Positions 28,914-58,865 of a stretch of 64,000 nucleotides of DNA are shown here, one piece after another. Position 1 is the first letter of the stretch. Every line of letters begins with the position of its first letter. A program made the translations under genes and the position numbers. The notes below the pieces were generated by a model. The model searched no databases. It was not told the DNA's origin and saw only the letters and a list, made by a program, of their open reading frames with translations. The stretch comes from Escherichia coli (GTDB lineage: Bacteria > Pseudomonadota > Gammaproteobacteria > Enterobacterales > Enterobacteriaceae), in assembly GCF_003790525.1 (NCBI RefSeq), contig NZ_CP033635.1, one strand, 5' to 3'.

Positions 28914-29044
28914 AAAAGTTTGATGCTCAAAGAATTAAACTTCGTAATGAATTACGTGTTCACTCTTGAGACTTGGTATTCATTTTTCGTCTTGCGACGT
29001 TAAGAATCCGTATCTTCGAGTGCCCACACAGATTGTCTGATAAA

Positions 29045-29057
29045 TTGTTAAAGAGCA
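29045..29057 (-). promoter_or_regulatory. rrn leader boxA antitermination element
   Basis: Minus-strand TGCTCTTTAACAA matches the rrn boxA consensus. Confidence 0.8.
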
Positions 29058-29097
29058 GTTGCGACGCGGCTTTCAGCTCACTGTCGCGAGGTGGCGT

Positions 29098-29125
29098 ATA
29101 TTACGCTTTCCTCTTTCAGAGTCAA
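29098..29125 (-). promoter_or_regulatory. rrnE P2 promoter
   Basis: Minus strand: -35 TTGACT (29120-29125), a 17-nt spacer, -10 TAATAT (29098-29103), then a GC-rich discriminator. Confidence 0.75.
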
Positions 29126-29207
29126 CCCTGAATTTCAGGATTTTTCTCTTCAACCGAACCGGCTGTTTGTGTGAAGTGATTCACATCCGCCGTGTCGATG
29201 GAGGCGC

Positions 29208-29235
29208 ATTATAGGGAGTTCTCCGCAGGCCGCAA
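29208..29235 (-). promoter_or_regulatory. rrnE P1 promoter with upstream A/T-rich UP element
   Basis: Minus strand: -35 TTGCGG (29230-29235), a 16-bp spacer, -10 TATAAT (29208-29213), GCGCC discriminator; A/T-rich tract upstream (29236-29260). Confidence 0.8.
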
Positions 29236-29406
29236 TAGAAAAATTGCAGAAAAATGACTGACTGCTGCATTCCCCAGCAAAACCCCGCTTTATACCTTTT
29301 TACGCACAGAGTTATCCACAATCATCAATGTAATTTCTGTATTTTTCCCACGGTAAACACTGTCAAAATTGTGATCACCATTGAAAGAGAAAAATTCGCG
29401 AGCGTT

Positions 29407-29428
29407 GCGCAAACGTTTTCGTTACAAT
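29407..29428 (+). promoter_or_regulatory. PurR operator overlapping the purHD promoter -10
   Basis: GCGCAAACGTTTTCGT (29407-29422) matches the 16-bp PurR box (ACGCAAACGTTTTCGT); a TACAAT -10 hexamer follows at 29423-29428. Confidence 0.75.
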
Positions 29429-29529
29429 GCGGGCGAAAAATAAGGATGCCCCGTTAGGGGCGTTAGCTGAGTTTTTCGCGAAAAATTCAGCTAACGCTCT
29501 CTGTAATAGTCAAATCCAGGGGATTTACC

Positions 29530-31119
29530 ATGCAACAACGTCGTCCAGTCCGCCGCGCTCTGCTCAGTGTTTCTGACAAAGCCGGTATCGTCGAATTCGC
29601 CCAGGCACTTTCCGCACGCGGTGTGGAGCTGCTGTCTACAGGGGGCACTGCCCGTCTGTTAGCAGAAAAAGGTCTGCCGGTAACCGAAGTTTCCGATTAC
29701 ACCGGTTTCCCGGAGATGATGGATGGACGCGTGAAGACCCTGCATCCGAAAGTACATGGTGGCATTCTGGGCCGTCGCGGCCAGGACGATACCATTATGG
29801 AAGAACATCAGATCCAGCCTATCGATATGGTGGTTGTTAACCTGTATCCGTTCGCCCAGACCGTTGCTCGTGAAGGCTGCTCGCTGGAAGATGCGGTTGA
29901 GAACATCGATATCGGCGGCCCGACGATGGTGCGCTCTGCCGCCAAGAACCATAAAGATGTCGCCATCGTGGTGAAGAGCAGCGACTACGACGCCATTATT
30001 AAAGAGATAGATGCCAATGAAGGCTCCCTGACTCTGGAAACTCGCTTTGACCTTGCCATCAAAGCCTTCGAACACACCGCCGCCTACGACAGCATGATTG
30101 CCAACTACTTCGGCAGCATGGTTCCGGCTTACCACGGTGAAAGCAAAGAAGCCGCCGGTCGCTTCCCACGCACGCTGAACCTGAACTTCATTAAGAAGCA
30201 GGATATGCGTTACGGCGAGAACAGCCACCAGCAGGCTGCCTTCTATATAGAAGAGAATGTCAAAGAAGCCTCCGTTGCTACCGCAACCCAGGTTCAGGGT
30301 AAAGCCCTCTCTTATAACAACATCGCCGATACCGATGCGGCGCTGGAGTGCGTGAAAGAGTTCGCCGAGCCGGCATGTGTGATTGTGAAGCACGCCAACC
30401 CTTGCGGCGTGGCTATCGGCAATTCCATTCTTGATGCTTACGATCGCGCGTACAAAACCGACCCGACCTCCGCATTCGGCGGCATTATCGCCTTTAACCG
30501 CGAGCTGGATGCGGAAACCGCGCAGGCCATCATTTCTCGTCAGTTTGTTGAAGTGATTATTGCGCCGTCCGCCAGCGAAGAAGCCCTGAAAATCACCGCC
30601 GCCAAACAGAACGTACGCGTCCTGACCTGCGGTCAGTGGGGCGAGCGTGTTCCGGGTCTTGATTTCAAACGCGTGAACGGCGGTCTGCTGGTTCAGGATC
30701 GAGACCTGGGGATGGTCGGTGCAGAAGAACTGCGCGTCGTCACCAAACGTCAGCCGAGCGAACAGGAACTGCGTGATGCGCTGTTCTGCTGGAAAGTGGC
30801 GAAGTTCGTGAAATCCAATGCTATCGTCTATGCCAAAAACAATATGACCATCGGTATTGGCGCAGGCCAGATGAGCCGTGTGTACTCCGCGAAAATCGCC
30901 GGTATTAAAGCGGCCGATGAAGGCCTGGAAGTGAAAGGTTCCTCGATGGCTTCTGACGCATTCTTCCCGTTCCGCGACGGTATTGATGCCGCCGCCGCTG
31001 CGGGTGTGACCTGTGTAATCCAGCCTGGCGGTTCTATCCGTGATGACGAAGTAATTGCCGCCGCCGACGAGCACGGTATTGCAATGCTCTTCACCGACAT
31101 GCGCCACTTCCGCCATTAA
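29530..31119 (+). CDS. purH: Bifunctional AICAR transformylase / IMP cyclohydrolase
   Basis: 529 aa, ATG confirmed; matches PurH throughout. Confidence 0.95.
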
Positions 31120-31130
31120 TGGAGCAATAG

Positions 31131-32420
31131 ATGAAAGTATTAGTGATTGGTAACGGCGGGCGCGAGCACGCGCTGGCCTGGAAAGCGGCCCAGTCGCCGC
31201 TGGTTGAAACTGTTTTTGTTGCTCCGGGTAACGCAGGCACTGCGCTGGAGCCTGCACTGCAAAACGTCGCTATCGGCGTAACCGATATCCCGGCGCTGCT
31301 GGATTTCGCGCAAAACGAAAAGATCGATCTAACCATCGTCGGCCCGGAAGCGCCGCTGGTGAAAGGCGTGGTCGATACCTTCCGCGCCGCCGGGATGAAA
31401 ATCTTCGGCCCAACCGCAGGTGCCGCGCAGCTGGAAGGCTCGAAAGCGTTTACCAAGGATTTCCTGGCCCGCCATCAGATCCCTACGGCGGAATACCAGA
31501 ACTTCACCGAGGTAGAACCTGCGCTGGCGTATCTGCGTGAGAAAGGCGCGCCAATCGTCATTAAAGCTGACGGTCTGGCTGCCGGGAAAGGCGTTATCGT
31601 GGCGATGACGCAGGAAGAAGCGGAAGCGGCTGTTCACGATATGCTGGCGGGCAACGCTTTTGGCGACGCGGGGCATCGCATCGTTATCGAAGAGTTCCTC
31701 GACGGCGAAGAAGCGAGCTTTATCGTGATGGTGGACGGTGAGCATGTGCTGCCGATGGCCACCAGCCAGGATCACAAACGCGTAGGCGATAAAGATACCG
31801 GGCCGAACACCGGCGGGATGGGCGCTTACTCCCCTGCGCCAGTAGTGACCGATGAGGTTCATCAGCGCACGATGGAACGAATCATCTGGCCAACCGTGAA
31901 AGGCATGGCGGCAGAAGGCAACACCTACACTGGTTTTCTCTACGCGGGCCTGATGATCGACAAACAGGGCAATCCGAAGGTTATTGAATTTAACTGCCGC
32001 TTTGGCGATCCAGAAACCCAACCGATTATGCTGCGCATGAAGTCCGATCTGGTTGAACTCTGCCTGGCAGCCTGTGAAGGCAAGCTGGACGAGAAAACGT
32101 CCGAGTGGGATGAACGCGCTTCTCTCGGCGTGGTGATGGCTGCGGGTGGATATCCGGGCGATTACCGCACCGGCGATGTGATCCACGGCCTGCCGCTGGA
32201 AGAAGTGTCTGACGGCAAAGTGTTCCACGCGGGCACGAAACTGGCGGATGACGAGCAGGTAGTGACCAGCGGCGGGCGCGTACTGTGCGTCACCGCGCTG
32301 GGTCATACCGTGGCAGAAGCGCAGAAACGCGCTTATGCCTTAATGACCGATATCCATTGGGACGACTGCTTCTGCCGGAAAGATATCGGCTGGCGCGCTA
32401 TCGAACGCGAGCAGAACTAA
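31131..32420 (+). CDS. purD: Phosphoribosylamine-glycine ligase
   Basis: 429 aa, ATP-grasp fold; matches PurD; operon partner of purH. Confidence 0.95.
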   Translation: MKVLVIGNGGREHALAWKAAQSPLVETVFVAPGNAGTALEPALQNVAIGVTDIPALLDFAQNEKIDLTIVGPEAPLVKGVVDTFRAAGMKIFGPTAGAAQLEGSKAFTKDFLARHQIPTAEYQNFTEVEPALAYLREKGAPIVIKADGLAAGKGVIVAMTQEEAEAAVHDMLAGNAFGDAGHRIVIEEFLDGEEASFIVMVDGEHVLPMATSQDHKRVGDKDTGPNTGGMGAYSPAPVVTDEVHQRTMERIIWPTVKGMAAEGNTYTGFLYAGLMIDKQGNPKVIEFNCRFGDPETQPIMLRMKSDLVELCLAACEGKLDEKTSEWDERASLGVVMAAGGYPGDYRTGDVIHGLPLEEVSDGKVFHAGTKLADDEQVVTSGGRVLCVTALGHTVAEAQKRAYALMTDIHWDDCFCRKDIGWRAIEREQN

Positions 32421-35162: not shown

Positions 35163-35213
35163 TCTTTTATCAGCGCTTACCCTGCGCTGTAACACAAAGG
35201 CTTAAGTTTCAAT

Positions 35214-35259
35214 GAGTAAAAATGACTCGCTACCCGCAGCAGGCGAGTCATTTTTACTC
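35214..35259. promoter_or_regulatory. ZraR enhancer: perfect 17-bp inverted repeats
   Basis: GAGTAAAAATGACTCGC - 12 nt - GCGAGTCATTTTTACTC, midway between the divergent sigma-54 promoters. Confidence 0.75.
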
Positions 35260-35301
35260 GTTTATCATGCCAGATTACCCGTCATATCAGCGTTTCGCCG
35301 T

Positions 35302-57625: not shown

Positions 57626-57666
57626 ATAAAAACAAAAGGCGCGAAATTGTATTCCAATCTCGCGCC
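57626..57666 (-). terminator. Intrinsic terminator downstream of nusG
   Basis: On the minus strand, a GGCGCGA...UCGCGCC hairpin followed by UUUUGUUUUU. Confidence 0.65.
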
Positions 57667-57705
57667 TTGTGCAACGATTAAATCGCCGCTTTTTTGATCG
57701 CTGGG

Positions 57706-58636: not shown

Positions 58637-58807
58637 AAACCAACCTGTCAGAAGTTTTCTACAAACATTTTCACCCCGCGATCGCGAGGCAAACCAAATC
58701 GAAACGCGTATTAGCTTTTCGGATTATACGCCCTCAACAGAGCCTGTCTCAGCAATGATTATGACAAAGAAAATCACTGATGAGCCAGGTTCTGGTACGA
58801 AAGCGTG

Positions 58808-58831
58808 CAAAAAGGGCATCAAATGATGCCC
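58808..58831 (-). terminator. Intrinsic terminator downstream of tufB
   Basis: On the minus strand, a GGGCAUC-AUUU-GAUGCCC hairpin followed by U5. Confidence 0.7.
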
Positions 58832-58865
58832 TTTTAGTGCGCATTGCGTCAAATGTTATCGGCAA

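Follow-up and report, generated by a model that had tools for sequence, protein, structure and literature searches.

A conserved stem-loop in the purH leader of Escherichia coli and its enteric relatives

The stretch of DNA analysed here (64,000 nucleotides, in the following referred to as the window) belongs to Escherichia coli and shows the gene order rrnE, purHD, zraRS. The region 29230-29640 is 100% identical to the corresponding region of strain ATCC 11775 and is present in 5419 of the 5426 complete E. coli genomes. Neither the K-12 nor the ATCC 11775 RefSeq record contains an annotated feature in the interval between rrsE and purH. This interval harbors a palindrome of 38 bp, which lies together with several smaller elements in front of the purH gene (Table 1). 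Further inverted repeats of the window are located at 35211-35262 in the zraS-zraP intergenic region (20-nt arms, 95% complementary, 12-nt gap), and, as hairpin-type repeats, at 58800-58845 (22-nt arms) and 57633-57671 (17-nt arms). The first of these we take to be a possible ZraR binding site of divergent sigma-54 promoters.

Table 1. Features of the purHD leader and its surroundings, given in positions of the window.
Feature	Position	Strand	Basis and remarks
16S rRNA gene of rrnE (rrsE)	upstream of purH	-	RefSeq annotation of the identical region in ATCC 11775
PurR operator GCGCAAACGTTTTCGT	29407-29422	+	abuts the -10 hexamer from upstream; conserved in Enterobacterales leaders
-10 hexamer TACAAT of the purHD promoter	29423-29428	+	every Enterobacterales leader has TA(C/A)AAT after its PurR box
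P1, short GC hairpin GCCCC-GUUA-GGGGC	29448-29461	+	abuts P2 and competes with its lowest pairs; minimum free energy fold of 29446-29503
Extended P2	29457-29500	+	GGG (29457-29459) pairs with UCU (29498-29500); 20 bp; excludes P1
Palindrome, P2 stem-loop of the purH leader	29460-29497	+	structure, conservation, covariation, G.U over A.C, covariance model
Pyrimidine-rich tail UCUCUGUAAUAG after P2	29498-29509	+	conserved; 4 U among its first 8 nt, no canonical U tract
Local hairpin AAAUCC-AGG-GGAUUU	29512-29526	+	covers part of the Shine-Dalgarno sequence AGGGGA (29518-29523); minimum free energy and centroid folds
purH coding sequence	29530-31119	+	529 aa; open reading frame list and RefSeq record of ATCC 11775, which is identical in this region
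purD	31131-32420		after purH; followed by zraR, zraS and zraP

The PurR operator in front of purH matches the motif ACGAAAACGTTTGCGC, which was reported for purH-purD in a PurR ChIP-chip study (PMC3159470). A consensus scan revealed no full sigma-70 match at the purHD promoter. Judged from the geometry of the PurR box and the -10 hexamer, transcription of purHD should start near 29435, which would result in a 5' UTR of about 95 nt. The palindrome is located between the PurR-controlled promoter and the ATG and is therefore placed in the 5' UTR on the basis of this promoter geometry. The positions of the -10 hexamer and of the purH ATG that were named in the original prediction agree with the sequence.

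Several observations were made in the DNA further upstream. A double DnaA box, TTACGCACA-gag-TTATCCACA, is found at 29300-29320, 140 bp upstream of the palindrome, and matches a DnaA site "upstream of purH" that is already known and was verified by ChIP-seq and ChIP-qPCR (PMC11317965). In E. coli EP91B an insertion of the IS3 family is located at about 29322, 2 bp past the consensus DnaA box; it parts the DnaA box from the purH promoter and leaves promoter, leader and hairpin intact. The minus strand of 29200-29235 resembles the P1 promoter of rrnE, with CCGCAA (-35 TTGCGG) at 29230-29235, ATTATA (-10 TATAAT) at 29208-29213, a 16-bp spacer and a GC-rich discriminator. A match to the Rfam family Ysr197 at 29035-29268 on the minus strand is below the threshold (118 bits vs 167) and probably represents just the conserved rrn leader. 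In the O157:H7 strain SS52 many positions of 29330-29390 deviate from both the window and K-12, and none does so from 29390 to about 29565, where the alignment ends. The edge of this divergence may reflect either a recombination boundary or a strong constraint on promoter and leader. Most Enterobacterales draft contigs of our collection (L004-L040) stop 150-700 bp upstream of purH. Since contig ends at this place are expected of a repeated rrn operon, the adjacency of purH and rrn seems to be widely conserved.

The palindrome consists of the arms 29460-29478 (GCGTTAGCTGAGTTTTTCG) and 29479-29497 (CGAAAAATTCAGCTAACGC), which were revealed by an inverted-repeat search as well as by direct reading and comprise 19 nt each with a spacer of 0 nt. 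Eighteen of the 19 positions are Watson-Crick complementary (95%), and the sole exception, G29471 opposite T29486, corresponds to a G.U pair in RNA, exactly as had been claimed. By chance, a complementarity of at least 18/19 is expected with 2.1e-10 per centre, which amounts to 1.4e-5 per 64 kb and about 1e-3 per genome of 4.9 Mb. A census of all centres in the 64-kb window identified none besides the palindrome with more than 15/19. The 19-bp stem of the original prediction holds for the match of the arms, but it has to be modified for the RNA: the central CGCG (29477-29480) is obliged to form the apical loop, so that the palindrome itself provides a helix of 15-17 bp. If longer flanks are included in the fold, the helix is extended to 20 bp by the pairs G29459.U29498, G29458-C29499 and G29457.U29500. 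The basal arms of P2, CGUUAGCUGA and UUCAGCUAACG, are conserved. For the RNA 29446-29503 (58 nt) a folding energy of -29.7 kcal/mol was calculated, corresponding to z = -6.1 in comparison to 200 dinucleotide shuffles.

For the comparison with other species purH loci were collected via the PurH protein and not via the hairpin motif, and the sampling was therefore blind to the leader. The same hairpin could be identified in 35 of the 37 purH leaders of Enterobacteriaceae, Erwiniaceae, Yersiniaceae and Pectobacteriaceae. Conservation beyond the strain had been set beforehand as one of the tests on which the original prediction would stand or fall, and with these leaders from four families it is clearly evident. 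The base of P2 is conserved as CGUUAnCUGA...UUCAnnUAACGCUCU, and with its flanks as GGGG-CGUUAnCUGA...UUCAnnUAACG-CUCU. The two arm motifs are separated by 15 nt in Escherichia, Citrobacter, Kluyvera and others, and by up to 66 nt in Cedecea, Serratia and Rahnella. The four central bases vary even among close relatives (CGCG, UGCG, CGUG, UACG, CACG, CGGU, AGAG, AGCC). The variants from metagenomes (see below) show free variation of these bases, and no more than a loop is formed at the palindrome centre. The predicted helix comprises 19-34 pairs in the 35 species, with a median of 20 and never less than 19, the E. coli helix having 20. Across K-12, O157:H7 and EP91B the leader is invariant, despite the O157 divergence just upstream of the promoter. 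On this sequence comparison, the palindrome is the shortened form, found in E. coli, of a conserved enteric purH-leader hairpin.

The long form of P2 in Yersiniaceae and Erwiniaceae carries at its apex a stem-loop with the recurring motif YCUCUAUAUAGAGR, which sometimes occurs twice (L024, L027, L029, L032, L035-L038). A similar CUAUAUAG hairpin was seen in Edwardsiella (L067). This apical part is missing from the Escherichia-type leaders.

Pairing was evaluated in a MAFFT alignment of the 35 leaders, using as controls the same columns with the 3' partners slid by 1-3 columns as well as 500 shuffles. In the alignment 90.8% of the cells are paired, compared to 38-52% in the slid controls. Both sides have changed in 10 of the 20 pairs, and the observed values were attained by none of the 500 shuffles. 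The pair of columns 26 and 104 may serve as an example, which is GC in 21 sequences, CG in eight, UG in three and UA in two. The columns of the P2 extension (17-19/111-113) are G.U, G-C and G.U in 32-34 of the 35 sequences and never covary. RNAalifold independently recovers P1 and, directly after it, P2. In this consensus P1 is formed by columns 9-12 with 17-20, it occurs with CG, UG and UA variants, and its loop differs among species.

G.U and U.G cells amount to 106, compared to 14 A.C and C.A cells, and within the core helix the numbers are 41 and 13. Such an excess of G.U over A.C points to an RNA on the sense strand of purH, since it is unexpected for a symmetry of the DNA or for the antisense strand. 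In column 27 a conserved C has a G as its partner only in Escherichia-like sequences, whereas a C or U is found opposite to it in 19 of the 35 sequences. The near-perfect palindrome is therefore a local feature of Escherichia and a few relatives. The conserved entity is an RNA structure of the sense strand that is specific for purH, with a base conserved in sequence and a tip free to vary, and it is very probable that this structure as such is under selection.

In each E. coli genome the palindrome occupies one locus; the two places that are reported by BLAST with a 61-nt query are the two strands of one site. A covariance model built from the enteric leader alignment identified a single site in the 64-kb window, with 73.9 bits on the plus and 32.9 bits on the minus strand, and no match in 46 other loci; the Vibrio, Aeromonas, Pasteurellaceae and Morganellaceae loci likewise gave none. 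Scanning metagenomes for the two arm motifs revealed at least 120 stretches, 80 of which were read. Nineteen of these 80 fold as hairpins with -21 kcal/mol or better, and all 19 are preceded by GGGG and have purH downstream. In the remaining 61 the arms do not fold onto each other, the GGGG is missing, and purH is not nearby; these 61 are chance matches, as expected of a gapped pattern of 18 bases. We also considered a regulon of similar hairpins, which was rejected because the covariance model found nothing else in the window or in the 46 loci and because the metagenome matches away from purH do not fold.

To the extent of Rfam, the RefSeq annotation and the searchable literature, which was also queried with the palindrome sequence, the hairpin has not been described; the purHD sequence papers of 1989-1990 may mention a dyad symmetry. 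Rfam gave nothing relevant in the window up to E = 10, the best hit being a chance microRNA match with 23.8 bits vs a gathering score of 76, and at the gathering score there was no match in 16 related loci. As no Rfam family reached the threshold, no ZTP riboswitch was recognized in the scanned leaders.

A distance of about 20 nt separates P2 from the ribosome-binding site downstream of it. The GGA within the Shine-Dalgarno sequence has a low predicted probability of being unpaired, and the local hairpin, which covers part of that sequence, is kept only in the group of Escherichia, Citrobacter and Enterobacter. A three-codon open reading frame, AUG CCC CGU UAG (29446-29457), overlaps P1 and stands directly after AAGGA. 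It was rejected as a conserved feature, as many relatives have no AUG or a frame that runs on. A canonical terminator was looked for on both strands and likewise rejected: the plus strand was not flagged, and the match on the minus strand is weak and its tail not conserved. The conserved CUCU after P2 was discarded as an anti-Shine-Dalgarno sequence on account of a predicted pairing probability of 0-0.15.

No such hairpin is present in the purH leaders of Rosenbergiella, Budvicia, the Pasteurellaceae and some Vibrio, and it is thus dispensable in those lineages. A different long hairpin, whose sequence is unlike the enteric one, is found in purH leaders of the Vibrionales and Aeromonadales, namely in Vibrio, Aliivibrio, Grimontia, Photobacterium, Aeromonas and Oceanisphaera. 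It was studied in the 160 nt before purH of the loci L042, L044, L045, L048-L050, L052-L055, L058-L061, L069, L070, L074, L076 and L083. Its base reads GGKNUUUNNNAAA...UUUNNNAAANNCC, its tip is variable, and usually a short hairpin is located just upstream. In the basal helix 84.9% of the cells are paired vs 31-58% in slid controls, and nine of the 17 pairs have changed on both sides. The Vibrio leaders L041 and L051 contain no such hairpin. A third long-range helix, AUGUUAUUG...CAAUAACAU, is formed in the purH leaders of the Morganellaceae. Within 2 kb upstream of purH the scanned Vibrio, Photobacterium and Aeromonas loci showed no rRNA match, and therefore the hairpin of these genera is not tied to an rrn neighbor. 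A link between hairpin and neighboring rrn operon was rejected for this reason.

The original prediction had also offered a binding site for a dimeric regulator and a REP-like sequence as explanations, and both have to be weighed against the leader comparison. The palindrome could act as DNA, as an operator (a second PurR site, or one for RbsR or PhoP) or as a cruciform. It is an inverted repeat in the DNA, both RbsR and PhoP have been reported to regulate purHD, and on comparison by eye with the motifs of PMC3159470 each arm bears a loose resemblance to a PurR half-site (CGTTAGC vs CGTTTGC). However, these half-site-like words stand in everted order, the spacing of the arm motifs (15-66 nt among species) is too variable for a dimer on B-DNA, the centre is not conserved, the arms are mismatched in 19 of the 35 species, and 106 G.U vs 14 A.C cells are not expected under a symmetry of the DNA. 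An operator is rejected, being largely refuted by the spacing data, and a function of the palindrome as DNA appears highly improbable to us. To our knowledge, the consensus sequences of RbsR, LexA, CRP, ArgR and PhoP share with the palindrome only half-site-like words in the wrong order. In purB and purR, PurR operators are located downstream of the start site, so that there too a palindrome lies downstream of a pur promoter; the purH palindrome differs from these by having no match to the 16-bp PurR box, a variable spacing and an unconserved centre. A REP-like or mobile-element remnant without a function of its own, or an antisense terminator of the minus strand, has hardly any probability either. 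Conserved ends and a variable interior do resemble miniature inverted-repeat elements, and on the minus strand the complement of P1 followed by AUCCUUAUUU was flagged as terminator-like. Yet the palindrome is confined to a single locus per E. coli genome, and by this copy number the REP-like sequence of the original prediction is rejected; in four families its position relative to purH is constant, the U-rich tail of the minus strand is not conserved, and the asymmetry of G.U favors the plus strand. We know of no match between the palindrome and the REP consensus.

Two further explanations accept an RNA structure and assign different functions to it. P2 could be a weak or conditional intrinsic terminator, a pause signal, or a promoter of Rho-dependent termination when purH translation is poor. 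Like intrinsic terminators and attenuators, the leader combines a very stable hairpin with a conserved pyrimidine-rich stretch after it and an upstream hairpin, P1, which overlaps the base of P2 in the manner of an antiterminator; the tails of Serratia, Rahnella and Pantoea have six U in the first 8 nt (UCUUUAUU, UCUUUUAU, UCUUAUUU), and the Vibrio hairpin also precedes a U-rich stretch. In E. coli, in contrast, the tail UCUCUGUA has four U in 8 nt (canonical tails have at least five) and the plus strand was not flagged by the terminator scan, the stem of 20 bp or more is far longer than usual terminator stems, and the part of the E. coli 3'-end map available to us lists no 3' end upstream of purH (PMC7815308), which is an absence from a list and not a direct test. 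Judged by the U content of the tails, attenuation would fit better in Serratia and Pantoea than in E. coli, and altogether we regard such a signal as quite unlikely. Also unlikely, though to be taken somewhat more seriously, is a platform or switch, in which P2 binds a protein or small molecule that reports the purine or one-carbon status and a shift between P1 and the P2 extension alters the access to the Shine-Dalgarno sequence, so that translation of purH would be controlled in a riboswitch-like or protein-dependent manner. It would account for a basal helix that is conserved in sequence beyond pairing and for the conserved C of column 27, whose partner is C or U in 19 of the 35 sequences. 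The GGGG can pair with CCCC in P1 or with CUCU in the P2 extension, and for the different species the predicted energies of both states are similar. According to the predictions, the Shine-Dalgarno sequence is mostly engaged in pairing (mean probability of being unpaired 0.29), its partner in several Yersiniaceae and Pantoea being the 5' strand of P1, and in other bacteria the ZTP riboswitch most often controls purH (PMC10912719). Against this reading stand the fully paired stem of E. coli, which has no internal loop as a pocket, the position of the conserved bases inside helices and not in junctions, the restriction of the predicted pairing between P1 and Shine-Dalgarno sequence to some species, the negligible pairing of CUCU with the Shine-Dalgarno sequence (summed probability 0-0.15), and the lack of a known candidate factor. 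The ZTP (pfl) riboswitch is likewise a cis-acting RNA of the purH leader (PMC10912719), but P1-P2 has no Rfam match, no pseudoknot of two subdomains, and conserved bases that are helical.

We tentatively favor, at a probability somewhat short of even, that P2 of the purHD leader is a cis-acting element for processing or stability of the mRNA, which would act on top of the repression by PurR. In this function P2 would act in cis after the start of transcription and set the amount of purHD mRNA that survives or is translated. A cut by RNase III within P2 would detach the ribosome-binding site from the 5' part of the leader, while an uncut P2 might be a barrier to decay that depends on the 5' end. 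The original prediction had described a stable leader hairpin which is not a simple terminator and possibly an element of stability or processing. This description gains support from the wide conservation, the compensatory changes, the excess of G.U over A.C and the poor U tract, with the placement in the 5' UTR following from the promoter geometry.

RNase III recognizes a helix of about 20 bp, corresponding to two helical turns, and because of the helix size it is the leading candidate for such a function. The 19-34 predicted pairs in all 35 species agree with this size of about 20 bp or more. In the leaders of pnp, rnc and adhE cleavage by RNase III alters the stability or translation of the mRNA, and these leaders also contain a long, near-perfect stem of about two turns in the 5' UTR upstream of the ribosome-binding site. 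Different from them, P2 of purH has a base conserved in sequence, which is not needed for RNase III, and its cleavage is a prediction. Stabilizers of the ompA type, or obstacles for RNase E, are similar in being stable leader stem-loops with enteric conservation that act independently of the ribosome-binding site. The ompA-type stabilizer, however, is located at the very 5' end, whereas about 13 unpaired nt should precede P1 in purH, and the purH stem is much longer than protection would need. As the sequence preference of RNase III is weak, the near-invariance of the basal 6-10 bp from E. coli to Yersinia is left unexplained, and this conservation keeps the binding of a factor or ligand alive as a reading. 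In the part of a published RNase III map that was available, the purH-rrsE site 4207874 belongs to the rrsE leader, and none among the listed sites falls into 4207565-4207602, the position of the hairpin in K-12 (PMC5371410). RNase III or a stability mechanism as the specific mode of action is accordingly graded by us as doubtful.

The operon purHD is a textbook member of the PurR regulon, yet its leader bears a conserved structure for which no database or annotation entry was found. If the hairpin controls the fate of the mRNA, it would add a post-transcriptional layer to enteric purine synthesis at the point where AICAR (ZMP) is consumed, a step that is controlled by a riboswitch in other bacteria. 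Vibrio and Aeromonas have a long hairpin of unrelated sequence in the corresponding place, which suggests a common need and not an accident. The hairpin would matter more if it reports the purine or one-carbon status. It is conceivable, although improbable, that P1-P2 represents a so far undescribed class of purH-specific regulatory RNAs in Gammaproteobacteria, with an enteric and a Vibrio/Aeromonas sequence family, which senses a purine or one-carbon signal directly or via a protein. If this were true, the P1-P2 class would do for purH what the ZTP riboswitch does in other phyla.
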